Shown here one piece after another: positions 25,710 through 60,048 of a DNA stretch of 64,000 nt; the first letter of the stretch is position 1; the number at the start of each line of letters is the position of its first letter. The notes beneath the pieces are model-generated. The model saw only the letters and a list, made by a program, of their open reading frames with translations. It did no database searches and was not told the DNA's origin. Location: NCBI RefSeq assembly GCF_053078305.1, contig NZ_CP166879.1; one strand, written 5' to 3'. The position numbers and the translations under genes were made by a program.

Positions 25710-25854
25710 CAGGGACAACAAAACCCGAAACTTCTTGTATTTGCCAGCAACAATGCCTCTCTTCTGTAGCGTTCTTCGGATCTACATCATCCTGAAGTAG
25801 CGCGATATACTCACTGACTATCTGAATCAGAATATAAAAAGCAATGTTTTTAAC

Positions 25855-25890
25855 CTATAAAAATGGCGCTGTATTTGCGCCATTTTTATC
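25855..25890. terminator. bidirectional intrinsic terminator (3' of yagU)
   Basis: hairpin ggcgctgtatttgcgcc flanked by A-run and T-run. Confidence 0.5.
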
Positions 25891-25900
25891 ATTCAATGCA

Positions 25901-36536: not shown

Positions 36537-36779
36537 TCAGTTTGCAGATGCAGTGGGTCTGATGGTAATTTCGGTTGTATCAACGCTTTCGGGAGATTCA
36601 ATAATATGCCTTACCGCACGGGCAATATCCGCAGGTTGAAGTGCAACAGAACGGTAGGCGTCCATTGCCTTCATGGTTTCCACATGGGTAATGGTTGAAG
36701 CCAGTTCACTTTCGACAACGCCAGGATTTACGCAGGTCACACGGATTTTCGAGCTTTCCTGCCGTAAGCCATCAGAAAT
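36537..36779 (-). pseudogene. C-terminal fragment of a short-chain dehydrogenase/reductase
   Basis: 67-aa ORF matching only the SDR C-terminus (NPGVVESELASTITHVET ... ADIARAVRHIIESPESV); no N-terminal Rossmann part; abuts a second gene fragment. Confidence 0.55.
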
Positions 36780-36780
36780 A

Positions 36781-37216
36781 GCCCGTACTGCAAATCAGGC
36801 AGCGTGAAATGGTCGTTGCCTCTCCCTCCTATCTCGCAGCCAACAGCACACCTGTTCATCCGCGTGAACTTGTGAATCATAAGTGTATCGGCTGGCGTCA
36901 ATCCCCGGATGTTGCGCCTTATCGCTGGCCATTTGAAGAAAACGGGAGAGCTTTCGACCTTGCGATTGAACCACAGATTACGACTAATGATCTGCGTCTG
37001 ATGTTGAGGCTGGCTCTTGCCGGCGGAGGAATAACAATTGCCACTCAGGAAACTTTCAGGCCGTATATTGAAAGCGGTAAGCTTGTATCTCTGCTTGATG
37101 ACTTTCTTCCACAATTTCCGGGCTTCTATCTGTATTTCCCACAGCGTCGCAATATTGCACCAAAGCTCCGCGCCCTGATTGACCACGTCAAGGAATGGCG
37201 GCAGCAATTGGCTTAA
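36781..37216 (+). pseudogene. C-terminal fragment of a LysR-family regulator (substrate-binding domain only)
   Basis: 135-aa ORF with LysR C-terminal motif FPGFYLYFPQRRNIAPKLRALIDHV but no HTH; junction with SDR fragment near 36780. Confidence 0.55.
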
Positions 37217-37343
37217 ATGTCTGCACCTGCATTGCCTGATGTCAGAACAGTATTTTGATTAATTGCCAGGGTTACAATGGCATAAATACGGCACAGGAGG
37301 AAACGTGGTGTATTTGAATATGGGGTAACTACTTGATTTAAAT

Positions 37344-37389
37344 GGTGCCGATAATAGGAGTCGAACCTACGACCTTCGCATTACGAATT
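37344..37389 (-). repeat. 3' 46-nt fragment of tRNA-Thr(CGU): att direct repeat marking the island boundary
   Basis: reverse complement ATTCGTAATGCGAAGGTCGTAGGTTCGACTCCTATTATCGGCACCA is the anticodon stem to CCA end of tRNA-Thr; the 5' half is absent, so not a functional tRNA. Confidence 0.75.
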
Positions 37390-37553
37390 AGCGAGACCAG
37401 TGATTCAAGATGTTCACAGCTGTTTCAGCATACAATAAAAAATATATAAAAATCAACAAAATACACATAAATGCAGTATCAAGATGTTTCGCCTTGTTTC
37501 TGATGATATCATGTTAAATGTGTACCCCACTGTGTACCCAAAAGGCTGAAGAT

Positions 37554-38873
37554 ATGACTTTTACTATTACACAAGACAGACAATTGGCTTCATTGACCGT
37601 TACTAAAGAAGAAAAAGAAATCTTATTTGCTGTAAAATCTAAAGCTGGGGGAGGACTCTTTATACGCGTTCGTTATGGTAGCGACAATAAAAGCTGGATT
37701 TATCGTTATCGAATAGCTCAAAAGCCAGCTAAATTAACACTAGGTAGTTACCCTGCCATGGGATTAGCTCAAGCTCGTAAAGCTCATGCGGATGCAATTG
37801 AATTAGTAAGAAAAGGTATAGATCCTCGTCATATTAGAAAAAATGAAAAACAAAAAAATGAACAAATGATTATTTACTCTGAATTATGGAAAGATTGGAT
37901 AGAATTCAGAAAGACAAGTAAACCAATTAGCACCAGAACCCTTGCAGATTATGAAGGGACTTATCACCGCCACCTTGAAAAAGCATTAGGAAACCTTCGC
38001 ATTGACGAACTTACCAAAAGCGTTATTTTTGAACATCTCAGTAATGTAAGAAAAACCAGTTCTGAAGCAGTTCGTAAAGGATTAATTATTCTAAATATGA
38101 CTCTTGATCATGCCAACTTACAGGGTATGCTTGAGCATAACCCAGCACGACTGCTCAAACCAGCAATGTTTGGTGCATCGATGAATAAACCTCGCGAGCG
38201 ATGGCTTCCTGAGAATGAACTCCGGATGCTATGGAAGGCTTTGGATGATGCTACTGTTGGAGGAGGCTCCATTGCATCTGGTGGCTATGGAATTTCCTCT
38301 AGTGTGGTATTATCTCATTCTGTCGCAAATGCACTCCGTTTGATTATTTTCACAGGAGTGCGCCGCTCTGAAGCGGCACAAATGCGCTGGGATCAAATTA
38401 ATGGAGAGCGTTGGACCATACCAGCCACTAAAAATGGGAAAAGCCATATTGTTACTTTACATCCGTATATGCTTTCTTTAATAAAAACACAACGTGAATT
38501 CACTGAAGGTGCATATGTTTTTGGTTCTACTAGCAAACCTGGCTTTCCCATCACAAATGACGCTCTGACTCGCGCGTTAGAAAGGGTTCGCTCTAAGTAT
38601 CTAGCCGAACTTACTCCATTTTCTCCTCATGATCTGCGTAGAAGTGTTGCGACTGGATGCGCTGAATACCTTGATGCTCCAGAGCGCCTAATAGAGTTAC
38701 TGTTAAATCATGTACCCAAAGACCGTTTAATACGAACATATCAAGTCGGACAACAAGCTGAAAAATTAAAAAATTTATTTATAGAATGGGGGAATTTTAT
38801 TATGAATAACGTCATTACTGTGCAGCAGAATGCTCCGGATAATGTTATTCATATAAAATTTGGGAACAGATGA
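37554..38873 (+). CDS. intF: tyrosine recombinase, P4-like prophage integrase
   Basis: ORF 37518..38873; N-terminal arm-binding/SAM-like region and C-terminal catalytic domain (HDLRRSVATG ... LLNHV... Y); adjacent to tRNA fragment; symbol by analogy to the CP4-6 integrase. Confidence 0.85.
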   Translation: MTFTITQDRQLASLTVTKEEKEILFAVKSKAGGGLFIRVRYGSDNKSWIYRYRIAQKPAKLTLGSYPAMGLAQARKAHADAIELVRKGIDPRHIRKNEKQKNEQMIIYSELWKDWIEFRKTSKPISTRTLADYEGTYHRHLEKALGNLRIDELTKSVIFEHLSNVRKTSSEAVRKGLIILNMTLDHANLQGMLEHNPARLLKPAMFGASMNKPRERWLPENELRMLWKALDDATVGGGSIASGGYGISSSVVLSHSVANALRLIIFTGVRRSEAAQMRWDQINGERWTIPATKNGKSHIVTLHPYMLSLIKTQREFTEGAYVFGSTSKPGFPITNDALTRALERVRSKYLAELTPFSPHDLRRSVATGCAEYLDAPERLIELLLNHVPKDRLIRTYQVGQQAEKLKNLFIEWGNFIMNNVITVQQNAPDNVIHIKFGNR

Positions 38874-38965
38874 TAAAAATACATGCATGGTCTGAGATAC
38901 CCTGTCTACTCGACCATGCAGTATGGTTCAACTAAATCAGTCACAACAAGAAATGATTAGTTTTA

Positions 38966-39814
38966 TTAGATATTGTATGGGATTATTTCTGGATAATACT
39001 TCGCAATGATGTCATTTAGCCGATCAACCAGTTCTGGTTTTCTGAACGTGATATGCGCGGAGCCCTTCTTAAAGTATCTGATGCTGAACATCTCATCTTC
39101 ATAGCAGGCTTTGCCCTGAACGGAGCGGATGTGATCATCCAGCCGAATAATGATATTTTCCCGGCTGTCGGGGATCGGTTTGCCGCTGAACAGGTGCAGC
39201 ATTCTTTCCAGGTCGGCAAGTCGATCTGCCTGTTGCCCGGTGATAAGATGCAATCCCCACCGGTCCCACCTCACCAGATTGTTGACGATAATTTTACTGC
39301 CAAATTTACAGGGGCAATTGGTTTTGTAATCCCAGCTCAGTCCCCTGAAGACGTTGATGACCCCACGCTCAAACACTTCATCCTTATTCTGGTGTAGCTG
39401 CTCAAACGTACTCAGTATATTCTCTTCACTGATTTCCGGAAAATTATCGTACTCCAGTGACCGGTACCATGTATCACGGGCCTGTGCATCCATTAAGGAA
39501 AGCATCCCTGAACGTTGCATCAGGTCACGCCAGATTTCACGGTCAAGGTTGCGGGTGATGGCTTTCATTGCCGTTTCAGGTTTCTCCATCAGCCAGCAAC
39601 CGCAGCGAAAATCCTGTTTCATGGCCCAGTCCGGAGCAGTTTTACCTCCAATACTTTCTGTCATTGCTGATATTTCAGCCAGTTGCCGGATAAGTGTGTC
39701 GATTTGCAGAAGTGTGCTCTTTCGTACAGCCAAAATGTGGCGGATACTGGTTGAGCAGATAACGTCCGTATGCCCGTTGACCACTTCCGGACGGGCGATT
39801 GTGATGCCTGACAT
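38966..39814 (-). CDS. hypothetical island protein (282 aa), function unknown
   Basis: long ORF with coding-like composition between integrase and a hairpin; CGC and CPC motifs; no family recognised. Confidence 0.5.
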   Translation of the reverse strand: MSGITIARPEVVNGHTDVICSTSIRHILAVRKSTLLQIDTLIRQLAEISAMTESIGGKTAPDWAMKQDFRCGCWLMEKPETAMKAITRNLDREIWRDLMQRSGMLSLMDAQARDTWYRSLEYDNFPEISEENILSTFEQLHQNKDEVFERGVINVFRGLSWDYKTNCPCKFGSKIIVNNLVRWDRWGLHLITGQQADRLADLERMLHLFSGKPIPDSRENIIIRLDDHIRSVQGKACYEDEMFSIRYFKKGSAHITFRKPELVDRLNDIIAKYYPEIIPYNI

Positions 39815-39830
39815 AATCGGTTTTCCTTTC

Positions 39831-39869
39831 TGTTTATAAATGAAAACGCCAGCCGTATTCAGGCTGGCG
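39831..39869 (-). terminator. putative intrinsic terminator downstream of the TA/yeeW-like operon
   Basis: hairpin acgccagcc-gtattca-ggctggcgt followed on minus strand by T-rich tract. Confidence 0.4.
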
Positions 39870-40127
39870 TCGGGGGAATGAAGTGTGGTGAGAAAGATAA
39901 TGAGTGAAACTCACCGGTTCAGGTGCTGAAACTGCAGATGGCGCAGAGTTCGGACATCCTGTCGCGCCTGTTCGATACAGGGCAACAGTGCTGCCGAATC
40001 CGTTTTATCCTCATCGTTGTCAAAGATAATTTCCGATTCGCAGTCAATATTGTCCTGCAGCCACGCAATCAGAATATCCAGCGCCGTTTCTGTGGTTAAT
40101 AATTTCATCCAGTGTCTTTTGTCCTGA

Positions 40128-40616
40128 TTACCAGTCGAAAGTGGGGAACCCCGGCAGACATTCTGCGCTGGCGTCCAGATGAATGAGACTGACGCCATAA
40201 CGCCGGGTGAGTGTGACAACCAGACGACGGAACGTTTTTGACAGGCCCAGGCGCTTAAGCCGCAGAACCGGGTATGACCACGCATCGGTACGTAACAGAT
40301 AGCCGCTGCCTGTAAAATGAATCCATTCTGATTCACCAACGTCACTGGTCTGGTGTGACAGCGAGTACAGCCAGGCGTTGTCCGTTTCCGTGATATGTGC
40401 GGTACTGCAGCGTATGCCGGTAAGGGCAGCAGAGGGGGGTATGCTGTCTGTTGAGGTCCGGTCAGATTCATCAACAACACGAAGGGAGTAGCCATTATCG
40501 CAGACCACGTTAATCAGTTCGGCAAGCTCAACACCATCGACGTCAACGACAATTCGCCCCATGTTCAGTGCCTGTACGTTAACGCTGTCAGCTTCCAGCG
40601 TCAGGGCCAGTTTCAT
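40128..40616 (-). CDS. YeeW-like protein, translationally coupled downstream of the CbtA toxin gene
   Basis: 162-aa ORF starting immediately after toxin stop; identification by position and partial recollection of YeeW sequence. Confidence 0.5.
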
Positions 40617-40990
40617 CGTTTTGCCTCCGGATGCTTGCCCCGGGTAATGTTATTTACCATTCTGTAATTGTTCCGGGTCATCAGGCCGGTCGCCCTGCGA
40701 GCCCGGAGAATATCAATGCTGTTGATTAACTGCGACGGGGCTCCTGCGCTGAATCCCGGCTGGTCGGTACGTACCAGCGCGTATTTTTCAACGAGAAATT
40801 TCACCGCGTCACACAGTGAAATCCCTGCCTCAATATGCTGCTCAATCACACGTTCATCAGCGAACGGTGTGTCATTCAGCGTAAGGCCATAGTGCTGGTC
40901 CAGCAGTCGGGTGAGCAGTGTCTGCCAGATTTCAACAGGAGATGGGCGTGAACTGGCCGACTGCCCGGGTAATACAGGTAATGTTTTCAT
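40613..40990 (-). CDS. cbtA: CbtA/YeeV-family type IV toxin (cytoskeleton-binding toxin)
   Basis: ORF 40613..41131; from internal Met the product [63 protein letters not shown]... matches the CbtA family throughout. Confidence 0.85.
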
Positions 40991-41079
40991 ACTGAAGATT
41001 TTCCTGATATGCAGAGATAAAAAATGGGAAAGTGGCGTGGTGAAAACACCAGGCCGTAGCAGAAGGCTATTCTGGAGGG

Positions 41080-41448
41080 TTAATTTTTCATTTCGGGCGT
41101 CGGATAAACAGCCAGATAAACGTAACCACAACTGCCGAGGGTATCGGCTTTGCAGGTCAGCCCTTTTGCATACAGCGTGACGGTATGCTGATGGCGGGGA
41201 TTCAGTTCACCGCTGGTGAGCATGAGTTCCAGTTGTTTCATCAGCAGCGGAAAGGCCTGGTCCAGGTGGTACGCATCCGCGTCGCTGAACCGGCCTCTGA
41301 TACCGGCGCGGTCGGCAAGGTAATGCAACCGGTTACCCTCCTGCACCAGACGGGCGCCGAAACAGGGCGTCGCGGTGCAGGGTAGCCCCCACCAGGGGCG
41401 GTCGTGATTGTCGTCGGGATGCGTTGTCCCGGGGAGTGTGTCTGACAC
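41080..41448 (-). CDS. cbeA: CbeA/YeeU-family type IV antitoxin
   Basis: ORF 41080..41568; GTG start at 41448 with GAGGA RBS gives (M)[51 protein letters not shown]..., a CbeA-family sequence. Confidence 0.85.
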
Positions 41449-41497
41449 GATAAAATCCTCACAGAAAATCGGTGAATGATAGTTTAACGATGACGGG

Positions 41498-42145
41498 TCA
41501 GCCGGCGCGCAGACCGGCTTCGGTGAAGGTGTATTTGTTGATGAGAAGGGTCTCATCAACAGCGGCATCTGAGGTCAGCCAGTCATACTCGTTTTCCAGT
41601 TGACGGTACAACCAGAAGGCCAGGTCGCGCAGGGCTTCGCTGACTGCGGCTTCCGCATCGGTTGTCATTACCTGACCAGTCGGACTGTTCCGGGTGACGG
41701 TGATATCCATGCTGTACGGATGGCAGTAGCGTCCCCGGAGATTGATTTCAGCCTGAAGCTGCCAGAAGTTACGTTTCTGCACCACCTGCAGGGCATCCGC
41801 GATACGATGAAGCTCACGGTCCTGCGGGGCATATTCCCGGAGCCTCCTGGCTGTTGCTGACTGCCAGTGCCAGCGTCCTTCAAAACAGGCTCCGTCCCCC
41901 TGGCTGCAGAATCCGCTGAACCAGATGCACGGCTCTTCCATAAACCTGCCACTGCTGAGCCGGAAAACGCGCTGGCGGAGGTCAATTCCGAAAATGCCAC
42001 AGACCGCCCTGAAGTCCTCGTACACGTTTTCATACCAGTTGCTGTCAGAATGGTGCACACGGTACCAGTCGCGGGCTTTTTCCCGTGCAGAAGGGCAGGA
42101 AAGTTCATCCAGCGTATACACTGTGGTGGTGATAATGCTGCTCAT
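41498..42145 (-). CDS. hypothetical 215-aa protein inserted between yeeT-like and cbeA (Trp/Cys-rich)
   Basis: long ORF in the module's transcription direction; not part of the canonical yeeS-yeeT-cbeA-cbtA arrangement; several alternative-frame ORFs overlap so the frame is uncertain. Confidence 0.35.
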   Translation of the reverse strand: MSSIITTTVYTLDELSCPSAREKARDWYRVHHSDSNWYENVYEDFRAVCGIFGIDLRQRVFRLSSGRFMEEPCIWFSGFCSQGDGACFEGRWHWQSATARRLREYAPQDRELHRIADALQVVQKRNFWQLQAEINLRGRYCHPYSMDITVTRNSPTGQVMTTDAEAAVSEALRDLAFWLYRQLENEYDWLTSDAAVDETLLINKYTFTEAGLRAG

Positions 42146-42163
42146 CAGAATCCCCTTTCTGAC

Positions 42164-42385
42164 TCAGTTCAGAGTAACGCTCATCAACCGGACATACGGG
42201 CCAAAACTGTCCTTACGGCGTTCAGCAAACACGGCCAGCACACCGGGAATATCCTGCACTTCACGACCGGTATACGTTTCAGCACTGCCGTGCCAGCGGT
42301 ACTTACCGGTACAGAACGGAAAAAGACGGGATGCAGGATGCTGTTGGTGAATACGCATGGCTTCACCACGGGTGATAATTTTCAT
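42164..42385 (-). CDS. yeeT: YeeT-like DUF987 protein (73 aa)
   Basis: MKIITRGEAMRIHQQHP...FPFCTGKYRWHG...GPYVRLMSVTLN matches the YeeT/YkfH family. Confidence 0.8.
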   Translation of the reverse strand: MKIITRGEAMRIHQQHPASRLFPFCTGKYRWHGSAETYTGREVQDIPGVLAVFAERRKDSFGPYVRLMSVTLN

Positions 42386-42453
42386 GATGGGATACCTCTG
42401 AAGACAGAAGATAAAAGTGAAAACAAGTGTGATGTGGTTGTGATGGTGACGGG

Positions 42454-42930
42454 TTAAAGCAGACCGTGTTCAGCAAAGGAGAAAACCTGGCTGCCACCGA
42501 TTATCAGATGGTCCGGCACCCGGATATCCACCAGGGCCAGTGCCTGTACCAGACGTTCCGTAATAAGGCGGTCAGCCTTACTGGGTGTGACTTCACCTGA
42601 CGGGTGATTGTGCGCCAGCACCACGGCAGCGGCATTGTGGTACAGGGCACGTTTAATCACTTCCCGGGGATGGACTTCCGTGCGGTTGATGGTGCCGGTG
42701 AAGAGGGTTTCACCGGCAATCAGCTGATTCTGATTGTTCAGATACAGCACCCGGAACTCTTCCCGCTCCAGTCCCGCCATGTTCAGAATCAGCCACTCCC
42801 GTGCCGCACGGGTGGAGGTGAAGGCCACGCCGGGTTCATGAAGATGGCGGTCCAGGGTTTTCAGGGCCCGCAGAATGAGACTGCGCTCGCCGGGCGTCAT
42901 CTCTCCGGGCAGAAAGGAAAGCTGTTGCAT
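42454..42930 (-). CDS. yeeS: RadC-like JAB-domain protein (YeeS/YkfG family)
   Basis: ORF 42454..42945; JAMM-like motif HNHPSGEVTPSKADRLITERL; conserved island position. Confidence 0.85.
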   Translation of the reverse strand: MQQLSFLPGEMTPGERSLILRALKTLDRHLHEPGVAFTSTRAAREWLILNMAGLEREEFRVLYLNNQNQLIAGETLFTGTINRTEVHPREVIKRALYHNAAAVVLAHNHPSGEVTPSKADRLITERLVQALALVDIRVPDHLIIGGSQVFSFAEHGLL

Positions 42931-42945
42931 TGTGCTTCTCTCCAT

Positions 42946-43452
42946 TCAGTCGATGATGCGCATAATGGCGCTGCATTCCGGATGCTGCAGGGCGTAATCC
43001 CGCAGCCGGTAATAATGGACCGTCATGGCATAACACTCCGTACGACAGGCATGATGACTGTACGTCATCAGACAGGCAGCAATGCCGGCAGCTTCCGGAC
43101 TCATTTCAGCGCGGTTACCGTTCATGGCATTGAACAGCACCCATGTTTCGTCATCATCATCCGGTTCGGGCGCCATAAATGCGCCACCGTTGTTCAGGGT
43201 GTACAGACTCCAGATACCACCGCAGTAGTCTTCACACAGACGGTCCATCCAGCCGAAGATACGGGGCTCCAGGGTCACCCACTGTGGAATGAGGCCAAAG
43301 TGCTGCGGCCAGAAGCTGATGCGCTGTTCATCAGGGACGGGAGTGGCAACCAGTTGAGACTGGTTATTCCCTGATGCAGCGGTCACGGAAACAGAAGGTG
43401 TGGTGGAATTATGCGAAGAGGTTGTCATGAGATTATTCCTTATAAAAAGCAA
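42946..43452 (-). CDS. antirestriction protein (KlcA/ArdB-like, YfjX/YafX family)
   Basis: 168 aa, acidic, Trp-rich; conserved position upstream of radC-like gene. Confidence 0.75.
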   Translation of the reverse strand: MLFIRNNLMTTSSHNSTTPSVSVTAASGNNQSQLVATPVPDEQRISFWPQHFGLIPQWVTLEPRIFGWMDRLCEDYCGGIWSLYTLNNGGAFMAPEPDDDDETWVLFNAMNGNRAEMSPEAAGIAACLMTYSHHACRTECYAMTVHYYRLRDYALQHPECSAIMRIID

Positions 43453-43516
43453 ATGAATGGAAGAAGTCGCGGGGCAGGGACGGACATGTCAGAACTGCGC
43501 TTTCAGGGAAAAGGCA

Positions 43517-44335
43517 TCAGCGCATACTCTCCAGCAGTGTTTCTGCCATCACCCACAACGCCCGGTTGAGCTTAATGTCGGTGTCGATGCTGTGAATGGC
43601 ACGGGTATGGATACGTTTCCCTCTGGCACTGCGACCGGAAATCCCGCCTTTCAGCATATTTTCCTGGATGGTCTGATAAGTACTCCACAGGTCCTTACCG
43701 TAATCCTCCCGGCGTCGTGGTGTCAGAATGTCGGCGGTGGTGACGGGCTGATGTTCGTCACCATAACGGTAAGTCAGCGCCGCCTGTGCCAGCGCCTGAC
43801 GTGCCGGTGGCGGTAAGAGCAGCGACTGCATGGCATCACGCTTTTCCTCAATCCGGTCAAAAACGCCCACCACTTCGTAAGCCCCTTCAATAACTTTCTC
43901 CACCACGTCTCCCCGGTGCGGAACACGCACCTCTCCCAGAGACTGACCGCAGACGCACCCGTTCTGACAAACGAATCTGAAGTAACCCGGCAGCATCTGG
44001 TAGCTGGAGGTACCGTCATGGGAATTGAGCAGGATGATTTCCGGGACATGCTGTCCGTTTATCTCTCCGGCCCGCCGCAGACGCAGCATGTGTTTTGTGT
44101 ATCCCCGGCGGCCCGGGTCACGTACGCGGGTCTGGCAGGCGAAGAATGGCTGAAAACCTTCCCGCTGCAGGCTTTCCAGTACGGTGATGGTGGGGATCCA
44201 GGTATAGTTCTCGCTTCTGGATGTGTGCTTATCTTCCCCGAATACGCTGGGGACGACTTGCATCAGTTCTTCGCGAGTTAAGGGGCGGTCACGGCGTATC
44301 TGGTTCGCATAACCAAAACGACTGGCTAATCGCAT
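43517..44335 (-). CDS. DUF932-family protein (YfjQ/YafZ-like)
   Basis: 272 aa; conserved island position and family-typical sequence (LLNSHDGTSSYQMLPGYFRFVCQNG). Confidence 0.75.
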   Translation of the reverse strand: MRLASRFGYANQIRRDRPLTREELMQVVPSVFGEDKHTSRSENYTWIPTITVLESLQREGFQPFFACQTRVRDPGRRGYTKHMLRLRRAGEINGQHVPEIILLNSHDGTSSYQMLPGYFRFVCQNGCVCGQSLGEVRVPHRGDVVEKVIEGAYEVVGVFDRIEEKRDAMQSLLLPPPARQALAQAALTYRYGDEHQPVTTADILTPRRREDYGKDLWSTYQTIQENMLKGGISGRSARGKRIHTRAIHSIDTDIKLNRALWVMAETLLESMR

Positions 44336-44746
44336 AATTTGCTCCTTATCGGTGGTTAAGATTTGCTGGTGTAATAAATGAAAAAGCCACGTCTCCCGGA
44401 GAAGACGCGGCCTGATGGGTGAAATGAATGACGTTTATTGTCTGAGAAGACCGTCACTGGCGAGCCGCGTATTAAGCACCTTTCCGGCATCGGGTTCAGA
44501 ATTCCGGCTGCGCCAGCGTCGCTGACCTTCCGCGTTGCGGATAACCCGACGGAAATGCATTCCCGGGTCATTCTGGATAAACACATTGCGGTAAGCGGTT
44601 ATGACAGCAACCGCCTGCCCGTATGAGAAAGATCCTTCAGCCAGGACATACTCTGTGTAACCCGGCATATCTGTTTTCTCCTGATAAATAAAAAGCCTCT
44701 GCCACGCGTTGTGACAGAGGCTGAAGCATGAAACTGACTTCAGGGA

Positions 44747-45202
44747 TCAGTTAACGTTTTTTCCGGAAACGGTAATCAGCAGTGGATGGTAGTCCTGGGG
44801 ATCGAAAACCGATAACGGCAGACTGACACGATGGCCGTTACTTTCTTCAGTTGCTTTAATGATTTCGGTTGTGGCGATATTTTCCACGCACTCCGTTTCC
44901 AGAAATGCGTCTGTGGTTCGCGTGGCATTACTGTCACCAAAAGCTTCCGTTTCCATTTTTCTGGTCACCAGCGTCTGACCATATTTGTCTTTGAGTTGCA
45001 GAGTGATGGTGAGGGGGCCAAATCCTTCACCGTTTCCGCCATTATCCAGCCGGAACTGGTAAGCACAAATATTTCCCGGGAGCCATATCGTATCTGTATT
45101 GCGTATACTGATGTAACGATGATCCTGTGCCCGGAGTGGGGCAGACCACGTTAACCCCAGAATGAAGGCGGTAATCATGCAGGTTTTGAACAGGTGAATC
45201 AT
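44747..45202 (-). CDS. small secreted/lipoprotein-like island protein
   Basis: 151 aa with N-terminal signal peptide MIHLFKTCMITAFILGLTWSAPLRA. Confidence 0.5.
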   Translation of the reverse strand: MIHLFKTCMITAFILGLTWSAPLRAQDHRYISIRNTDTIWLPGNICAYQFRLDNGGNGEGFGPLTITLQLKDKYGQTLVTRKMETEAFGDSNATRTTDAFLETECVENIATTEIIKATEESNGHRVSLPLSVFDPQDYHPLLITVSGKNVN

Positions 45203-45277
45203 GGTATTTACCTCTCTGAGTCATGACGATGACACTGACAAATCAGGTGATAAAACGTAAAAGGCGCAGAATAGCCG

Positions 45278-47800
45278 TTATGCCGGTAACTCCGGAGGTA
45301 ATGCTTCTTCCAGTCGGTTAACCATATTGCCGAGATGGGATGCATCATATTCCATGACGGGGCGTTGCCTGATGATACTGACCACCAGTGGTTTGATTAA
45401 CATATTGGTCGCGGCCCGTTGTTGTATACCGGCGGCGAAAATGATCTCCAGAGCATTCTGATCGATAACACGGGCCAGATTCTCGTTCAGATTTTCAATC
45501 TCATGTCCGGTCAGCAGGAAACTGCCGGCAAGCCATGTCACCTGCTCCTGAATCATTGCCAGAATTTTGACGCGATCTTCTTCAACCAGCGCTCCGGCAA
45601 TTTTTCCTGATACAGCGGAGGCAATCATTCCCCCCAGAACACCGCCAACCACACGCCCTGTCAGTGCACCAAATGGTCCCAGTGGACTGAACAGTATCCC
45701 GCCCGCCACTGACCCGACAGCTCCACCTGCAACACCGGAAGATGCCACGGCAAGATTCCTGATGAACTGCGTACCGGAGATCCGTCCCCGCAACATTTTG
45801 ATCATGTCAGGGCCGGTTGTGACAGCTACCAGTGCCAGAGATGTCACCAGCGTACCCTTCATCACTTTGTTCAGGGCACTGATATTTCCTGCACCGGTCC
45901 CCTTCTGAAGAGCCAGTCGGACAGTCGGGCTGGCAGTCGAAAAATCAATGTGCTTCAGCATACCCTGAACAACACTGAGCCGGTGGAGTTGCTGGGTTGT
46001 GACGTAGACAGCCAGTGTGCGGGTGAAGGTTTTTCCTGCCTGGACAGCAGCTGTCTGCAGGGCAGCATCGCGATCGCCGGTGCTGAGCCAGAAGACCGAT
46101 GCCGTCAGGGCAAAACTGATCCCTCCGGCCGCCAGACTGACAACCGAACCCTCGGCAATATCATAAGTGACCGATTCGATGGTCCCGAACCGGGTGATAT
46201 TACGGGCCTGAGTATAAGTCAGATGTCCCCGACGAATCAGCCGGGACGCTTCTGCGGGATCGGTTACACCGGGTACTTTACCTTCGCGGATCTTATTCCT
46301 CATGGTTTCAACAGCGCCGGCATACTGATCACGGGGGACTTCCAGTTGCATGGGGCCATTATTTCCCATGTAACGATACTGTCCGTTTTGTCCGTCGAAT
46401 GCCGCACCGACGCTACGGGCTGCAGTTGAACAATATTTCGTCTGGATTTCTGTTCCGCTGACCAGTCTGTCTGCTCCATTTCTGGCATTATTATCACCGA
46501 GGATCCGTGCGTTTTTCAGACGGACTCTGTCGACAATATGGTTTCCCCGTTCAGCGGCAAACCCATGTCCCTGCCCTCCGGAAGCAAACATTTTCTCATT
46601 TGTACTCCAGGTTTCCGGCAGTTTCATGAGAATCAGACCATTCGCCGTTGCATCGGAAATAAAACCGGTGTAAGAACGTTCATAAATGTCCTGACACAGT
46701 GTTTCTGTTTCGCGACAAAGAGAGGAGCAGTACCATTCCGGATCCGGCTTATGATTTTCCGGGGCATGATGTACTTCTGTCAGCCCGCAGGAGGCACAGA
46801 TACGAAGCTCATCCACGTGATGGAATGATAAAAAACGGCGACCTTCTGAAAAGGGATACCAGTCACCGCCGTCCAGGCAACGATCGAGAAAATCGTCATT
46901 CGCTTCCGGTGATAAATTCAGGCGGTTCCGGAAGAGCGTTTTCAGTTCATCAGGTGTGAATGACAGGTTCTCTTTCAACTGTTCGTTAAACCCTGCCATG
47001 TTTCTTTCATACCAGGCATTGTTCAGTAACCAGTTTCCGTCTGCCAGTTCAAATTCCCTCAGCTCTCCCCGGGAAATCCGTTGAGAAATGAGCGTCAGCC
47101 AGATGCGCTCCGTCAGTGAGTCAGGAAGGCTGTAATCGTTTTGCAAACTGGTCAGCCACGATTTACTGTTGAGCACCGGTTGTTCTTCCAGTGTCTGGCT
47201 GATGGCACAGGTCAGTTTTTTCAGCGCCTGGATCTGGCTGGCCGCCCATAGCAGCGTCACTAATGCAGCCAGCCAGTACAACAACCCGCCCCACCACATC
47301 AGTGACGGTGAAATATCGTACTGTAACGCGATCAATGGTGCGCATGCAGAACACGCCATAAGGAAAAAGGCAGTATAAAAACAGCAGTAATACCCGTTAA
47401 TTTCCTTGCTGATATCTTCTGGTGTGATCCCGTTCTGCTGAATGTTTTTGATCTGCAGGGGAACAGCCAGCAGACCACCGGCGAGAGCAGTGGTCAGAAT
47501 AAATTTCACAGAGTCAAAGGTGTGAGCCTCCAGCGCGATATGTTTACCATCAAGTCCCCACATGAAGCTGATGATCATTCCGGCAATCGTCAGAAATACG
47601 CCTGCCAGCCAGCGAATATGGAACAACCGGGTTATGCGTTCGGTGATATAGCCAGCCAGTAAGGCCGGGCCGAACAGACACAGCAATATGAGCCCTGCCA
47701 GCGCAGAAGCCGTGCTGATTAATGCTCTGAACAAAAGGCGAAGAATGGCAAATCCTGCGATCAGCAGGATCAGCGCGCCGACTATCTGTAACATAGTCAC
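45278..47800 (-). CDS. YeeR-like inner membrane protein (840 aa) with N-terminal TM bundle, central Cys4 zinc-ribbon-like motif and C-terminal Gly-zipper segment
   Basis: about 6 N-terminal hydrophobic helices; CASCGL...(18)...CSSLC; Gly-rich GVAGGAVGSVAGGILF...GGVLGGMIASAVSG; position immediately downstream of Ag43 as for yeeR. Confidence 0.55.
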   Translation of the reverse strand: MTMLQIVGALILLIAGFAILRLLFRALISTASALAGLILLCLFGPALLAGYITERITRLFHIRWLAGVFLTIAGMIISFMWGLDGKHIALEAHTFDSVKFILTTALAGGLLAVPLQIKNIQQNGITPEDISKEINGYYCCFYTAFFLMACSACAPLIALQYDISPSLMWWGGLLYWLAALVTLLWAASQIQALKKLTCAISQTLEEQPVLNSKSWLTSLQNDYSLPDSLTERIWLTLISQRISRGELREFELADGNWLLNNAWYERNMAGFNEQLKENLSFTPDELKTLFRNRLNLSPEANDDFLDRCLDGGDWYPFSEGRRFLSFHHVDELRICASCGLTEVHHAPENHKPDPEWYCSSLCRETETLCQDIYERSYTGFISDATANGLILMKLPETWSTNEKMFASGGQGHGFAAERGNHIVDRVRLKNARILGDNNARNGADRLVSGTEIQTKYCSTAARSVGAAFDGQNGQYRYMGNNGPMQLEVPRDQYAGAVETMRNKIREGKVPGVTDPAEASRLIRRGHLTYTQARNITRFGTIESVTYDIAEGSVVSLAAGGISFALTASVFWLSTGDRDAALQTAAVQAGKTFTRTLAVYVTTQQLHRLSVVQGMLKHIDFSTASPTVRLALQKGTGAGNISALNKVMKGTLVTSLALVAVTTGPDMIKMLRGRISGTQFIRNLAVASSGVAGGAVGSVAGGILFSPLGPFGALTGRVVGGVLGGMIASAVSGKIAGALVEEDRVKILAMIQEQVTWLAGSFLLTGHEIENLNENLARVIDQNALEIIFAAGIQQRAATNMLIKPLVVSIIRQRPVMEYDASHLGNMVNRLEEALPPELPA

Positions 47801-47914
47801 TCCGTGATGAATATCATGTTATTGTTAATGCCAGCGAATGTGGCGTTGAAGATCCGTTGCGCCGGTCCGGGTCCCGGTCATGATGACCGGGACCACAGAG
47901 AGGCGATGGTTCTG

Positions 47915-50900
47915 TCAGAAGGTCACATTCAGTGTGGCCTGACCGTTATACCCTTCAGCGCTGCTGCCGCTGACGCTGTGGGCATAACCGGCCTGAACGC
48001 CCAGGGTGATATTTTCCCGGACACGGGCTTCCAGTCCGGCCTGCAGGTCCAGTGACGTGCCATTCCGGGACGGTGAGAACGTCATGTTACTGCCGGCTGC
48101 AGCTGTACCCATGCTCATGTCCCCCCGGGAGCTGAAGGTGCGGATAACAGAAGGTTGTACCCACCAGTTCACAGGCAGTTCACTCACACCGTGTTTTGTA
48201 CTGTCGCGCAGGGTGTCACGGGATGAGGTGCCTTCACCAAAGGTCATATCGTTGTGGCTGCCCAGACGGAAACCGGCACGCACATGTTGTGCACTGCCAT
48301 ACCCGAACTTCACATAACCGGCGTTATCCTGGCCGTCATCCAGGGAGAGTCCCTGCCAGGTGTACTGCAGTTGCGGCTCCAGCATCAGATTGTCAGTGAT
48401 ACTGAAGGGCAGACCGGTTTCCAGCGAACCCAGCCAGCCCCACCCCCGGGCGCGGAAGTCGTTATTGTCCGTTGACGCTTTCATGCTGTGGCGGGTTCCC
48501 AGGGCCACAATGTCAGCCCACAGGCCGGAGGATGTATGTGTCAGATTCAGGTATCCGCCAAGGCTGCCGGCATCATCCCGGACCGTGCCGGCACGGGAGG
48601 CGTCATCATCCTTAACATCAACGGAAGAATGGCCTGCAGCACCATATATCCCTGCGGTCACAGACATACCGGCAACCTCTGTTCTCAGCAGGTCACCCTC
48701 CAGGCGGACGAAGCCATAGCTGCCGCTGCTTTCCGGCGTGGCCCCACGGGCAATACCGCCGTTGTTATCGTGACCGAGATGGCCGCCCTGAATGCTGAGA
48801 CGGACGCTGTTATTTTCACCGTTTACACCGGTCTGATGGCTGCGTGAGCCTGCCAGAATCCGGTCATAGTCCATTGCCTGTGTCAGCATGGAGGCATACA
48901 GGGGGACTTCTGCACGATAAGCATTTTCACTGCGCAGATACCAGCTCTCATCACTGTCCCGGTTGAGGGAGTAGTTAAAGGCACCGGCCTGCAGCCTGTT
49001 CCCCTGGACAAAGGCCCCTTCCTCCGTGGTGGCACCGTTAATGGCTTCCACCACCTGAATACCCTTACCGCTGGTCGCCAGCCCCGACGCACTGTTGCCA
49101 GCGTTCACCAGGTTCAGGATGGTTTTTCCGGTTGCCCTGCCACCGTCAATGACCAGTCTGTCAGCATTGTTCTGTGCCATATCCGGGCGTACACGCAGGC
49201 TGATGGTGCCATTCTGTCCGTTCAGGTTTTTCACTTTCAGGGTTGCCGGTACGAACTTCCCTGTGCGGGTGGAGGTGAAATGAATCTGTCCGGCATGGCT
49301 GAGGTCATCCACCACCGACTGCACCGTGGCGTTATCGGGGATATTCCAGGTGGCACCGGAGGCGAGAGTGACATTCGTGGGGTCAATGGCACCGTTCAGC
49401 ACAGTGCTGCCGGTCAGCTTCAGGGCTGTACCGCGCTGAGCAATGACATCCGTGGTGACGGTACTGTCGTTCAGCGTCAGCGTGCCTTCATTCAGGTTGA
49501 CGGCTTTCTGGGTGAGTGTGGTGTTGCTGACAGTGAGTGTGCCACTTCCTGATTTTTCCACGCTGCCGTTACCGGTGAGAGAGCCTCCCTGCAGGAGTGC
49601 ATCGCCTTCACGGATGGTCAGGGTATCGTTGTTCACCGTCTTCCCGGAAAGGGTAAGTATGGCGCCGTTATTCAGCGTGGTGGTGCCCGCCAGTGTGCCG
49701 CCCCTGGCGGTGAACAGTCCGCCATTTACCGTGGTATCCGTGGCCGTATCACCGGCGTTCAGCGTGAATGAACTGCCTTTTTCCAGCATCAGGGCATCCG
49801 CCTGACCGCCTCCGATACTGAATGCCTTTCCGTCGCTCCGTGTACCACTGACAGCGGCACCGGAATCGGCCAGCAGTACACCGCCATTCCCCATGGATAC
49901 GGTGGTGGCGGCACCACCGTTGCGGACATCCAGCGTTCCGCCATCATCCACACGGGTATTAGTGGCTGTGTGTCCGCTCAGCACATCCAGACGTCCGCCA
50001 TTTTCCAGTACGACATTATCAGCTTTACCCTCCACAACAGAGAATGCTCCCTGGCGGTTTATGCCGGTAACGGTTGCAGCCGTACTGGTAACCAGTGCGC
50101 CGCCCTGCTTCAGGGTGACATTCGTGGCTGTACCACCGGCGTTCACCTGCAGTTTGCCTTTCTGGTTAACGGTGGTGAAATCCGCCAGACCACCTTCCTT
50201 GACAATCTGCCAGCCGTCACTGTTTACAACCGTGTCAGAGGCTGTGCCTCCGTTGTGCACATACTGGTAACCGCCATTCAGTGTGGTATCCAGCGCATGC
50301 CCGTGTACCGTCTGGTCGCCGCCGGCATAAACCACAGTGGTATTTGCTGTTCCTTCAGCAGCCACAATCTGACGACCATTTTTATTGATAGTGGTACGTA
50401 CGGCATTTCCGCGAACAAACTGCCCGGTATCACCATTTTCTGCATCTGGTCCCCCTTCCGCGCCGGTATTCACAACCGTGTCGGTTGCCATTGCGCCGGA
50501 TTTGACGGCCTGCCAGCCCTTCTCATTAATGACGGTACCCGTTGCAATCCCGCCTTCATGTACCCACTGCTCACCGCCGTTCAGAGTGGTGTTCACTGCC
50601 TGCCCCTGAAGGCTCTGTCCGCCTCCGGCACTGATAACCGTGTCTGAAACACTTCCGCCGGGATTCACTCTCTGAAGACCACCACTGGTGACAGTCGTTT
50701 TGTTGGCTGTACCGCCATCCTGTACCCATTGACCGCCGGTATTGGCCTCATTGTCCGGCCCGTACTCCAGCCCGGTACTGATGGTCATTCCGTTGGTCAT
50801 ACCGAAGACAATCTGGTTGTCATGATTTGTCAGTGTTCCGCCGCTCACGGTTTCTCCCGCCTGTACAACCGTGTCAGCAGCCAGTGCCGGGACTGATGTG

Positions 50901-51034
50901 ACAGCAGCAAGAGACAGCGCAACCGCCACTCCGGCGCGTTTTCCCCGTGAGCGGGCCAGTTCGGAGGCCACCACCAGGGTGCCCGTAATGTGATTCCATA
51001 CCAGCCTGTAGCTGGTGTTCAGATGTCGTTTCAT
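47915..51034 (-). CDS. flu: Antigen 43 (Flu) self-associating autotransporter adhesin
   Basis: ORF 47915..51190; 1039 aa from MKRHLNTSYRLVWNHITGTLVVASELA extended signal peptide, passenger beta-helix repeats, C-terminal beta-barrel ending in aromatic residue. Confidence 0.9.
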   Translation of the reverse strand: MKRHLNTSYRLVWNHITGTLVVASELARSRGKRAGVAVALSLAAVTSVPALAADTVVQAGETVSGGTLTNHDNQIVFGMTNGMTISTGLEYGPDNEANTGGQWVQDGGTANKTTVTSGGLQRVNPGGSVSDTVISAGGGQSLQGQAVNTTLNGGEQWVHEGGIATGTVINEKGWQAVKSGAMATDTVVNTGAEGGPDAENGDTGQFVRGNAVRTTINKNGRQIVAAEGTANTTVVYAGGDQTVHGHALDTTLNGGYQYVHNGGTASDTVVNSDGWQIVKEGGLADFTTVNQKGKLQVNAGGTATNVTLKQGGALVTSTAATVTGINRQGAFSVVEGKADNVVLENGGRLDVLSGHTATNTRVDDGGTLDVRNGGAATTVSMGNGGVLLADSGAAVSGTRSDGKAFSIGGGQADALMLEKGSSFTLNAGDTATDTTVNGGLFTARGGTLAGTTTLNNGAILTLSGKTVNNDTLTIREGDALLQGGSLTGNGSVEKSGSGTLTVSNTTLTQKAVNLNEGTLTLNDSTVTTDVIAQRGTALKLTGSTVLNGAIDPTNVTLASGATWNIPDNATVQSVVDDLSHAGQIHFTSTRTGKFVPATLKVKNLNGQNGTISLRVRPDMAQNNADRLVIDGGRATGKTILNLVNAGNSASGLATSGKGIQVVEAINGATTEEGAFVQGNRLQAGAFNYSLNRDSDESWYLRSENAYRAEVPLYASMLTQAMDYDRILAGSRSHQTGVNGENNSVRLSIQGGHLGHDNNGGIARGATPESSGSYGFVRLEGDLLRTEVAGMSVTAGIYGAAGHSSVDVKDDDASRAGTVRDDAGSLGGYLNLTHTSSGLWADIVALGTRHSMKASTDNNDFRARGWGWLGSLETGLPFSITDNLMLEPQLQYTWQGLSLDDGQDNAGYVKFGYGSAQHVRAGFRLGSHNDMTFGEGTSSRDTLRDSTKHGVSELPVNWWVQPSVIRTFSSRGDMSMGTAAAGSNMTFSPSRNGTSLDLQAGLEARVRENITLGVQAGYAHSVSGSSAEGYNGQATLNVTF

Positions 51035-51214
51035 CAGCTTTTCCTTAGATTGAGGGTGAATAAAAAAGCCGGTACCCACAAACGTGGATACCGGCAGGTA
51101 AAGGGTTACAGTGCCGGAGGTCCGGCTGTGGGAGTTTCTGAATTGTGGTTCTGTTGTTCCCTGAATGTCTTTCTGTACGTATCTGTGCATGTTACTGACA
51201 AAGGTTATTATTAG

Positions 51215-51260
51215 CTTATCGATCGATATAAACGATCGATAAAATAGGTATCGATCGTTT
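51215..51260. promoter_or_regulatory. agn43 phase-variation switch: three Dam GATC sites within the OxyR operator
   Basis: GATC at 51221, 51234 and 51253 in the sequence tcgatcgatataaacgatcgataaaataggtatcgatcg, ~180-225 bp upstream of flu start. Confidence 0.75.
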
Positions 51261-51361
51261 TATTCTATTGTTTGGCTATTGCACGGACAAGAGAGACAGT
51301 AACGAAAACAGCGCTTTTGTGAGCAGACTCAGAGTCAGGGAGGGCATCAGTCACGACAGGT

Positions 51362-52234
51362 TCAGAAGAAAATCCAGTTCCATACCGCACGGGCAACAGA
51401 GACCACCGTGTTACGAACAGCGCGCAGGGCCGTACGGACAACAGAGGCAACACAGACGCTCTCCGCTGTGTCAAATATCCGGTCCACCGCACCGGTAAAC
51501 TGTTCACGGGCCTGAGACCGGACAGATTCCGTGCGCAGCTCGTCCTGCAGTCGGGTCATCAGGGGACTGGCGGCATGGTCGGGAAGCGCTGTCATGAGCG
51601 CACTGACCAGCGTATCCAGTTCCCAGCCGGTGCGGGCCGATACGGCCACAACCGGATGTACGGGCCGGAACAGACGGAATACCGCCTCCGTTTTTTCGCG
51701 AATATTCTGTGCCTGTGCAGGAGAAGGCTGAATACCGGCCATATCCCATTCATGGCAGGGCTCCGTTTTGTCGGCCTGCGTCACCACAAACAGCACCTGC
51801 TGATGTCCGCACTGCAGGATGTGTCGCCAGAAATACTCATCCACAGACAGGGCACGGTCATCGGCTTTAATCAGCCACAGTACCAGGTCAAGTTCAGGCA
51901 GAATGTCACGGTACAGGGCTTCATACTCAGCATCCCTGTCCCGGCTCTCGCCCACCCCGGGCAGGTCAGTGATAACCATGCTGTGACCATGGCCACTCAG
52001 ACGGAAGCGCTGCACTTCCCGGGTGCCAGCGTGAACATCACTGACCGGGGTGACCTCCCCCTGAAACAGTGCATTACAGAGTGAGGATTTACCGGCCCCG
52101 CTTTTACCCATAATGCCAATCACGGGTTCGTGGCTGGTGAGTTTGCGCAGATGTTCCAGGATGTGACGGGAAAGTGAATAAGGCAGGGAGGAGAGTGGTT
52201 TTTCAATTGCCTCAATGGCATCAGACGGATTCAT
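51362..52234 (-). CDS. yeeP: YeeP/YkfA-like island GTPase
   Basis: ORF 51362..52297; Walker A GKSGAGKSS, G3 DLPG, NKxD-like TQADK; start assigned to MNPSDAIE. Confidence 0.8.
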   Translation of the reverse strand: MNPSDAIEAIEKPLSSLPYSLSRHILEHLRKLTSHEPVIGIMGKSGAGKSSLCNALFQGEVTPVSDVHAGTREVQRFRLSGHGHSMVITDLPGVGESRDRDAEYEALYRDILPELDLVLWLIKADDRALSVDEYFWRHILQCGHQQVLFVVTQADKTEPCHEWDMAGIQPSPAQAQNIREKTEAVFRLFRPVHPVVAVSARTGWELDTLVSALMTALPDHAASPLMTRLQDELRTESVRSQAREQFTGAVDRIFDTAESVCVASVVRTALRAVRNTVVSVARAVWNWIFF

Positions 52235-52543
52235 ACATGTATTCCCGGTGAAAAAAAGACAAAACCCCGCGCACCGGAAAGGTGGCGGGGGACTCACGGA
52301 GATAATATATGTCTGAAATTATTTTGATTGTATGGTGTCATGAGATAGCTGAAACCGAGCTATGGATATGCAAATAATAACCTACAGTTTCCGGTTTGAG
52401 GATCGATGAAATCGTTGATTAATGTTAATATACCGCCAATTTTTCAGCGTTCTGATTCTTTCAGTGAATCAACGTATTGGGCTTCCCTGATAGCTGAACG
52501 CTTTAACTTACAATGCTCAGAATTGATAAGAAAAAAGGAATAT

Positions 52544-57237: not shown

Positions 57238-57549
57238 TCTATAGAAATTGCGTAACGAAACTGCATTTCAAATTGGTTGAGACAATCTAACTCTGAGTAT
57301 TGGAGCTTCTCTGTAAGAAGGTCCAATACTTACAAGTCTATTTGGTGACCACAGCCACTATAACTTAAAGCAGTTTAGCAGCTTGTTAACTAAAGAGTTT
57401 TATTGTTTCTTCAACCTGGAATTGCGGAATCCCCTCTTTCGTACAATTAATGATAGGATGTGTCAATATAGTAACTTTTGCAACTTCACCCGAAGTTTTT
57501 TGTAAAATATACTGACCTATTATATGTCACAAAATATGTGATGTGAGGA

Positions 57550-59610: not shown

Positions 59611-60048
59611 TTAAAGACTATCGTCGTAGGGTGCTTCAGTCAGAATCTTTTGAATTTCATGTCGTGCTTTTAGCTCCCATGAAAGATTCATATTTGCCAT
59701 TAACTCAATAAATTTTGGAAACGCGATACGTCGTCCATCTCTGCCTTCCACCCTGTGTTCTAACTCATATTGAAATGCTATCTTATAAGCGAGTTCTGAC
59801 ATGATCCAATAAAGTAGCTCATCTAGCGAACTAGTTACCTTCCGCGAGAATTCATAACCTCTTTCTGAATGAATGTAATTATATACATTGTTTTCAAATG
59901 TAACATATGGTGTGCCATCACCAATTGGAGCAGAACAAAGATTAACTGAATATCTTGAGAGACCAGCTTTCAAAGTCAATGCGTCAATTTTTTTTTGTAT
60001 TTCATTGATATTCAACAACATGTTAGCGAACCTCACGAATATATCCAT
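59611..60048 (-). CDS. cdiI: CdiI-type immunity protein cognate to the CdiA C-terminal toxin
   Basis: 145-aa ORF immediately downstream of, and overlapping, the cdiA stop; low-GC relative to cdiA body; alternative start 60021 one nt after cdiA stop. Confidence 0.6.

Follow-up and report, generated by a model that had tools for sequence, protein, structure and literature searches.

Several islands of Escherichia coli K-12 provide points of comparison for the locus described here. CP4-6 occupies the tRNA-Thr(CGU) gene thrW, with proA-thrW on one side and yagP-paoD on the other; the 3' block of thrW is repeated, the integrase gene intF stands at the partial-tRNA end and reads away from the fragment, and the element still excises (PMC3105296). 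The opposite-divergent (OD) tRNA-integrase shape was described for this ptwF-intF pair, and IntF was shown to repress its own promoter 23-fold (PMC2951348). In KplE1/CPS-53-type modules (Panis et al. 2010), the 5' region of the integrase gene overlaps the att arm, and integrase and directionality factor flank attP, so that they come to lie at opposite ends once integrated. CP4-57 (ssrA-intA-alpA-yfjI ... yfjP ... yfjZ-ypjF) has its integrase gene beside the intact target gene, reading in the same direction as that gene and the backbone. CP4-44 (yeeP-isrC-flu-yeeR-yeeS-yeeT-cbeA-cbtA-yeeW) is without an integrase and does not lie at a tRNA boundary. The thrW passages of an E. coli island review and of a paper on a pheV island say nothing on integrase position, and a literature search on ptwF returned unrelated papers only.

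The DNA analysed here, referred to as the window, comprises 64,000 nucleotides of contig NZ_CP166879.1, and positions 37333-64000 very probably represent the distal 26.7 kb of one integrative island of approximately 46 kb inserted in thrW (Table 1). This extent and length were taken from comparison with two near-identical complete genomes, STEC17-190 (99.6-99.9% identical to the window) and SI-NP020, in which the same gene order is followed by an intact thrW beside proA, the end of the island lying outside the window. The island exhibits presence/absence polymorphism with a precise empty site, as an in-silico LysR-thrW-proA junction aligned without interruption in 948 of 5426 genomes (identity up to 99.8%). 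We infer that the island is mobile in the present day.

An original prediction, made from the window alone, had interpreted a partial tRNA-Thr as an att repeat rather than a gene. This is borne out by a BLAST search with the complete thrW of a near-identical genome, which gave a perfect 56/56 match on the minus strand (E = 9e-27), and by ARAGORN, which called no tRNA in the 64-kb window, including at attR. The tRNA part, running from the anticodon loop to CCA, has the predicted length of 46 nt, but its coordinates were one base off (37344-37389, correctly 37343-37388). When att copies were sought in the window and its relatives using blastn-short, direct repeats of the thrW 3' part were found as attR in the window and at the intact thrW end in STEC17-190 and SI-NP020. 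Hence no complete tRNA gene overlies the fragment, and the second repeat that had been anticipated does exist, with the intact thrW beside proA approximately 46-48 kb further on in the closest complete genomes. The chromosomal flank outside attR lies on the side that adjoins intF at the thrW site of K-12.

Table 1. Features of the thrW island and its flank within the window
Feature	Coordinates	Strand	Basis or remarks
Chromosomal flank: C-terminal remnant of yagP-like LysR regulator	36797-37216	+	
attR core	37333-37388	-	56-bp direct repeat: thrW nt 31-76 plus 10 bases downstream of thrW
Integrase-proximal att arm and int 5' region	37389-37553	+	repeated motifs; positions kept in relatives
P4-type tyrosine integrase, apparently intact, 439 aa	37554-38873	+	PF13356 Arm-DNA-bind_3, PF22022, PF00589
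Spacer between convergent int and DUF4942 stop codons, 92 bp	38874-38965	.	
DUF4942	38966-39814	-	Pfam
DUF957	39911-40108	-	Pfam
DUF5983/YeeW-like	40128-40616	-	Pfam
CbtA, type IV toxin-antitoxin pair with CbeA	40613-40990	-	
CbeA, type IV toxin-antitoxin pair with CbtA	41080-41448	-	
Hypothetical 215 aa, DUF987, RadC, antirestriction protein, DUF932, DUF905, IrmA	41498-45202	-	
YeeR-like protein, 838 aa	45278-47794	-	
Ag43 autotransporter	47915-51034	-	
IsrC / IS102 small RNA, between GTPase and Ag43	51055-51258	-	253 bits
YeeP/YkfA-type GTPase, module's first gene	51362-52234	-	
N6_N4 DNA methyltransferase	52544-54667	+	domain match
ResIII DEAD/DEAH helicase	54664-57237	+	domain match
BRO-N protein	57550-58344	+	
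Hypothetical protein, 105 aa	58686-59003	+	
Imm63 immunity gene	59611-60021	-	
cdiA	from 60023, cut by window end at 64000	-	

The integrase does adjoin the partial tRNA, as had been proposed, but the start suggested for it, 37518, is an upstream in-frame ATG, and RefSeq relatives begin at 37554. The catalytic R...K...HxxR...H...Y residues are visible in its translation (VRRSE, TKNGKSH, HDLRRS, LLNH and RTYQ), as assigned by eye without structural alignment. Among 5426 E. coli genomes, 201 carry the gene, which is at least 99% identical in 199 of these. Between it and the att core, TCAAGATGTT is repeated at 37405 and 37478, and a tandem pair of TGTGTACCC is found at 37519 and 37531, that is 35-15 nt 5' of the int ATG. 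These are the only two instances of TGTGTACCC in the 64-kb window, where 0.4 would be expected; in relatives, the only further copies lie next to the intact thrW, at 47-66 bp from the core, and therefore both island ends appear to serve one integrase. The matching arm on the thrW side is present in 269 genomes. The positions of the arm repeats are conserved in relatives and the motifs are clade-specific. TGTGTACCC and TCAAGATGTT are presumed to be arm-type Int sites, and from their position and conservation only we infer that Int binds them. The interval from the att core to the int ATG (37389-37553) yielded no sigma-70 consensus promoter. The thrW fragment (minus strand) and int (plus strand) are divergent and 165 bp apart, giving the OD shape. 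By analogy with IntF and IntS, the TGTGTACCC repeats in the two arms would probably subject int to negative autoregulation. As in the KplE1/CPS-53-type modules, the att arm and the 5' region of int overlap and the integrase is separated from its putative directionality factor by integration; the Int here is of the P4 type, and the factor would be AlpA-type rather than TorI-type.

Next to the integrase lies a GTPase-to-DUF4942 module, all genes of which (38966-52234) are on the minus strand. Its order, read from the integrase, is DUF4942, DUF957, DUF5983, CbtA, CbeA, a hypothetical protein, DUF987, RadC, the antirestriction protein, DUF932, DUF905, IrmA, YeeR-like, Ag43, the IsrC RNA and the GTPase, which places the toxin-antitoxin end closest to int, with the module ending 92 bp from the int stop codon. 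Both the single orientation and the proximity of the toxin-antitoxin end had been anticipated correctly, as had the cargo of restriction-modification, BRO-N and cdi genes beyond the GTPase. The methyltransferase and ResIII helicase (52544-57237) are a type III-like restriction-modification pair. The island extends past the window end (64000), and AlpA (PF05930) and DUF3987 are found at its intact-thrW end. A hairpin at 38881-38925 precedes a U-run on the minus strand and is likely to be the terminator of the module operon. Silencing of int by convergent module transcription was considered as well, and is weakened by this hairpin and U-run, which should terminate minus-strand transcripts before int.

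The module is collinear with CP4-44 at 90-96% nucleotide identity, including IsrC (96% to K-12 over the YeeR-like/Ag43 span, 45278-51034), and additionally contains DUF932, DUF905, IrmA, the antirestriction gene, DUF957 and DUF4942. With CP4-57 the island shares a backbone of the same kind, consisting of a P4-type Int, AlpA, DUF3987/YfjI, cargo, GTPase, RadC, a CbtA-family pair and an att repeat, although IntA is 24% identical and in the window's island the integrase/att cassette is inverted relative to the backbone. CP4-6 shares the thrW site and flanks, and also has a GTPase-to-toxin module as well as yagJ, a remnant of the window's ResIII gene. However, IntF is only 25% identical to the window integrase, the CP4-6 module, 69-76% identical, occupies the other end of the island and faces the other way, its toxin being next to the intact thrW, and the cargo is unrelated; the low IntF identity and the inverted, diverged module rule out the island being CP4-6 itself. 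With its toxin-antitoxin end turned toward the integrase, the window's island is the reverse of both CP4-6 and CP4-57. An inverted integrase/att cassette, rather than the fusion of two islands, best accounts for this reversal.

The closest E. coli integrase, at 68% identity, belongs to the P0027-type thrW defence island, which carries a type I restriction-modification system, a UvrD-like protein and Zorya. It occupies the same site with the same divergent geometry, shares the arm design in which tandem repeats precede the ATG and recur in the opposite arm, and has its following genes convergent on int, with an HTH/YfjJ end at the intact thrW. Its arm motif differs, being AAGTACGC, present twice in both arms, and its cargo is different and does not include the GTPase-to-toxin module. 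Scanning species-representative genomes for integrase peptide patterns found no relatives; further members of the integrase clade were gathered from the contigs that encode protein homologues. A 46-nt thrW fragment that diverges from int and lies approximately 165 bp upstream of it is found in E. coli P0027-type islands, Pectobacterium, Brenneria, Salmonella and Aeromonas, and this layout is the rule across all the genera checked, Aeromonas to Escherichia; in Aeromonas a whole 7-kb island with intact thrW is visible. The 80-nt 'tRNA-Thr' called by ARAGORN at attR of P0027-type islands was treated as spurious, the Rfam tRNA model giving it no support. K-12 ptwF-intF, whose IntF is unrelated, has the same divergent geometry. 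As int normally lies beside the leftover tRNA fragment in this clade, the layout is no sign of two fused islands.

The original prediction had taken the layout to suggest a composite or tandem island. As a tandem array, the locus would comprise two successive thrW islands, one supplying the integrase at 37554 and the other the GTPase-to-DUF4942 module. True tandems do occur at thrW: E. coli E308 carries an island of the window's type followed by a P0027-type island, another strain a lambdoid prophage followed by a P0027-type island, and in Pectobacterium two integrases lie on either side of one thrW fragment. Furthermore, the toxin-antitoxin end of CP4-57 and CP4-6 forms the island boundary far from int. 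However, every true tandem examined retains a 46-76-bp thrW fragment between its elements, whereas blastn-short searches of the window and of the two relatives' islands detected no such internal fragment. Searches by tblastn with seven different integrases found 37554-38870 and its counterpart in relatives as the only integrase locus, and no integrase remnant in the island of the window or its relatives; the locus thus has neither two or more integrases nor an internal att. The same Int-specific repeat is present in both outer arms, the geometry is normal for the clade, and the int/DUF4942 junction is fixed, being found in 190 of 195 integrase-carrying genomes. The tandem reading is largely refuted already and is very improbable. 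'Composite' applies only weakly, to the mosaic of exchangeable modules of which this island, like all such islands, consists, and not in the sense of a fusion of two islands.

A degraded form of the same idea would make the integrase and attR relics of an earlier occupant, the remainder being another island that has lost its own integrase and the internal att; the present unit would then be immobile as a whole. Some boundaries are compatible with this: homology of the module to thousands of copies elsewhere ends 20-60 bp inside the DUF4942 3' end, homology of the first backbone gene to ileX-type islands ends at the start codon, and a step in GC content separates int (41-45%) from the module (52-59%). 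In addition, int is co-directional with AlpA and the following genes in the more distant clade members from Aeromonas and Brenneria, which implies that the convergent layout here is derived and that some past rearrangement occurred. Nevertheless, two precise deletions without remnants would be required, and the arm at the intact thrW contains the resident integrase's own repeat, which would be unexpected for the end of a foreign island. The sister lineage, with its 68% identical Int, likewise places its HTH/YfjJ end beside the intact thrW, with genes converging on int, indicating that the layout predates the window's island. Such a relic is therefore unlikely, as is the immobility it entails.

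The rearrangement might instead have been an in-place inversion of the island body, through inverted IS or module copies, after a CP4-6-like integration. Relative to K-12 CP4-6, the module and the ResIII remnant (K-12 yagJ) are indeed exactly inverted with respect to the flanks. By contrast, the levels of identity (25% between integrases, 69-76% between modules) show that the two are distinct elements rather than inversion isomers. Neither in the window nor in its relatives is the body surrounded by an inverted IS pair, the cognate arm directly adjoins the first backbone gene, and an integrase at least 99% identical followed by hyp-AlpA, the canonical order, was seen in none of 195 carriers. 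There is consequently very little likelihood of this route.

The favoured reading of one island with an inverted cassette would be accounted for as follows. The P4-type integrase probably recombined thrW with an island-borne copy of its 3' end, identical over 56 bp from within the anticodon loop onward. This rebuilt an intact tRNA on the proA side, outside the window, while the 3' segment that thrW had carried before was displaced to the yagP side (37333-37388). With int approximately 165 bp inside the leftover fragment and reading away from it, the gene always comes to lie at the partial-tRNA boundary throughout the clade, and the genes for the AlpA-type excision factor, a putative directionality factor, and the DUF3987/YfjI primase come to lie at the opposite, intact-tRNA end. 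The backbone, hyp-hyp-AlpA-primase ... cargo ... GTPase-Ag43-RadC-CbeA/CbtA-DUF4942, is common to islands at other tRNA genes, among them an ileX island with an unrelated Int. Compared with CP4-6, CP4-57 and the ileX island, only the integrase/att cassette of approximately 2 kb is oriented opposite to the backbone, so that the toxin-antitoxin end adjoins int. Such a flip would cause the body to insert in the opposite chromosomal orientation, with the toxin-antitoxin/DUF4942 operon converging on int. That this convergent operon and self-binding by Int could together lock int silent in this lineage and its 68% identical sister, stabilising the island and selecting the layout for retention, is a decidedly doubtful extension.

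For annotation, an integrase beside a partial tRNA at thrW is the expected signature of both this integrase clade and the unrelated K-12 IntF, and is no evidence for tandem or degraded islands. Matching arm repeats provide a simple sequence test of whether two ends belong to one integrase; combined with a retained internal thrW fragment, this tells single islands from real tandems at the thrW hotspot. The current understanding of tRNA-targeting islands is unchanged by the window island. The attR copies of two close relatives have one or two differences from thrW, such that some copies may be decaying.

At the left end of the island the window carries part of thrW, the tRNA-Thr(CGU) gene, rather than the whole of it: ARAGORN found no tRNA gene in the window, and blastn-short gave a 56/56 perfect match to thrW (E = 9e-27). 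Aligned with the complete tRNA-Thr(CGU) of a near-identical genome, 37320-37420 (-) is identical from the anticodon loop to the CCA and for 10 bases beyond. The chromosome to the left consists of paoABCD and a LysR remnant; in K-12 this flank of the thrW site adjoins intF and yagP. Past the window end, the two complete genomes STEC17-190 and SI-NP020, 99.3-99.9% identical to the window's island part, share one gene order (cdiA, cdiB, DprA, TOTE primase-helicase, Gp2/YfjJ-like, YfjI (DUF3987), AlpA and two hypotheticals), and in both the far island end is an intact tRNA-Thr adjoining proA. Among 5426 complete E. coli genomes, 948 gave an unbroken alignment (up to 99.8% identity) to a synthetic empty site in which the left flank was joined to the 56-bp core, the 5' part of thrW and proA. 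The att repeats therefore mark the exact island boundaries, and of the roughly 46-kb island the distal 26.7 kb lies in the window. The original prediction that the 46-nt fragment is an att repeat rather than a gene is borne out, although its coordinates (37344-37389) were one base off.

Features of the island and its flank (window coordinates)
Feature	Position	Strand	Detail
6.3-kb segment	9394-15701
IS009 RNA family match	25697-25895	-	Rfam, 184 bits; chromosomal part
~5-kb chromosomal segment	31791-36877		MFS transporter, alpha/beta hydrolase, LysR regulator
SDR oxidoreductase, C-terminal part	36540-36809
yagP-like LysR, C-terminal part	36797-37213
thrW match	37333-37388		tRNA portion 37343-37388
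Integrase	37554-38873	+	PF13356, PF22022, PF00589; catalytic residues present
Hairpin	38881-38925		followed by U-run on minus strand
Module	38966-52234	-	from integrase: DUF4942, DUF957, DUF5983, CbtA, CbeA, hypothetical, DUF987, RadC, antirestriction, DUF932, DUF905, IrmA, YeeR-like, Ag43, IsrC RNA, GTPase
DUF5983 (YeeW-like) ORF	40128-40616	-	intact
ResIII 3' end	56406-57286
Cargo past GTPase			N6_N4 methyltransferase, ResIII helicase, BRO-N, Imm63 gene, cdiA (cut by window end)

The gene content agrees with what had been read from the sequence: an integrase adjoining the partial tRNA, a GTPase-to-yeeW module wholly on the minus strand with its toxin-antitoxin end toward the integrase, and restriction-modification, BRO-N and cdi cargo past the GTPase. 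From this layout a composite or tandem island had been proposed. Two islands in succession at thrW should be distinguishable by what lies between them, as each real thrW tandem examined keeps a 46-76-bp thrW fragment between its elements. For instance, E. coli E308 (L012, 3660001-3710000) has a window-type island followed by one of the P0027 type, a sister lineage of E. coli thrW islands, and its internal fragment is a hybrid junction joining one island's arm to the other's; another strain has a lambdoid prophage and then a P0027-type island, and a Pectobacterium array has two integrases. By contrast, blastn-short found no further thrW-like fragment >14 nt either in the window or in the islands of the relatives, and tblastn with seven integrases (window Int, IntF, IntA, ileX-island Int, a Pectobacterium P4-like Int, the P0027 type and a prophage Int) found a single integrase locus. 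The outer arms also share one motif. The 165 bp from att core to int ATG hold TGTGTACCC twice in tandem (37519 and 37531), its only occurrences in 64 kb (0.4 expected), and in the relatives every other copy sits next to the intact thrW, 47-66 bp away from the core and oriented the same way (TGTGTCCCC-TGTGTGTACCCAAA); the two island ends therefore seem to bear arm-type sites for a single integrase. In E. coli the sister lineage, with an Int 68% identical, has the same arm design with another motif, AAGTACGC twice in both arms. To the extent that close relatives allow a judgement, a tandem is refuted, and the island is composite only as a mosaic, with GC content stepping from one part to the next, as islands of this kind generally are.

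The integrase's position beside partial thrW is not unusual for its family. For every homologue checked (59-78% identity, from Pectobacterium, Brenneria, Salmonella and Aeromonas, plus the E. coli P0027 type), int is preceded at ~165 bp by the 46-nt thrW 3' fragment, which lies on the other strand, and a tandem repeat stands directly before the int ATG. In Aeromonas an entire 7-kb island is visible, running from partial fragment through int to intact thrW. The island is a further example of a well-known kind of element.

What sets it apart from CP4-57, CP4-6 and the ileX island is that the module's 3' end comes after int, with AlpA at the far end. CP4-57 runs in a single direction throughout (att, int, alpA, yfjI, cargo, GTPase, toxin-antitoxin, att); in CP4-6, read from intF, int is co-directional with the GTPase-to-toxin module and the toxin lies at the far att; and in the ileX island an integrase of the opposite-divergent (OD) type leads directly into the backbone, whose first gene has 93% nucleotide identity to its counterpart in this island. 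The module is 90-96% identical to that of CP4-44, versus only 69-76% for CP4-6 and CP4-57. Homology with thousands of other module copies ends 20-60 bp inside the DUF4942 3' end, and that with the ileX-type backbone at the start codon of the first backbone gene; the unique part is therefore a ~2-kb cassette of DUF4942 tail, spacer, int, one arm, core and other arm, which is inverted relative to the shared backbone. As the int/DUF4942 junction occurs in 190 of 195 genomes with a full-length integrase, and the sister lineage's genes also converge on int, with the HTH end at the intact thrW, this layout is old and stable.

Int would recombine the 56-bp core of a circular form with thrW, the tRNA being restored by the island-borne copy, and AlpA may serve as directionality factor, as in CP4-57. 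Putative Int sites lie 35-15 nt ahead of the int ATG, which suggests that Int is autorepressed; no sigma-70 consensus promoter was found in the region containing them. CP4-6 of K-12 has the same int/partial-tRNA shape, although its IntF is unrelated (25% identical): ptwF-intF has been classed as the rare OD tRNA-integrase shape, with 23-fold autorepression of the intF promoter (Panis et al. 2010, PMC2951348), and CP4-6 excision persists at about 1e-5 per cell (PMC3105296). The hairpin and U-run in the 92-bp int/DUF4942 spacer, missed by a simple terminator scan, are likely the terminator of the module operon, whose transcription should end there before entering int.

Several further differences were observed. 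The ~5-kb segment separating paoD from the att site is missing in K-12, STEC17-190, SI-NP020 and G3X16-2, and a ~1.05-kb deletion particular to the window (relative to strain EC1515) fuses the C-terminal parts of the SDR oxidoreductase and the yagP-like LysR. The 6.3-kb segment is absent from the otherwise collinear SI-NP020; tblastn found LysR and hydrolase paralogues in it. The annotations of STEC17-190, G3X16-2 and EC1515 give the DUF5983 ORF as a pseudogene, interrupted by a stop codon. K-12 yagJ in CP4-6 (L004, 31400-32283) shares 93% identity with the 3' end of the island's ResIII helicase gene; it is therefore what remains of the same restriction-modification-like cargo, inverted relative to the flanks.

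At other thrW sites, ARAGORN calls an 80-nt 'tRNA-Thr(cgt)' in the attR of P0027-type islands (L006-L009, 9791-9870 (-)), made up of the 46-nt thrW fragment and island sequence; the Rfam tRNA model has no match there, and the call is probably spurious. Two of the thrW arrays are genuinely tandem or else scrambled. In E308 prophage remnants have taken the place of the integrase end of the window-type island, which meets the P0027-type island at the internal thrW fragment. Pectobacterium araliae (L010) has a canonical P4-like integrase and a member of this clade on either side of the same 46-nt fragment, and the sister thrW island of E. coli 2018-11-3CC (L014, 3567001-3617000) is a 26-kb defence island carrying a type I RM system with a DUF4268 gene, a UvrD-like helicase and type I Zorya.
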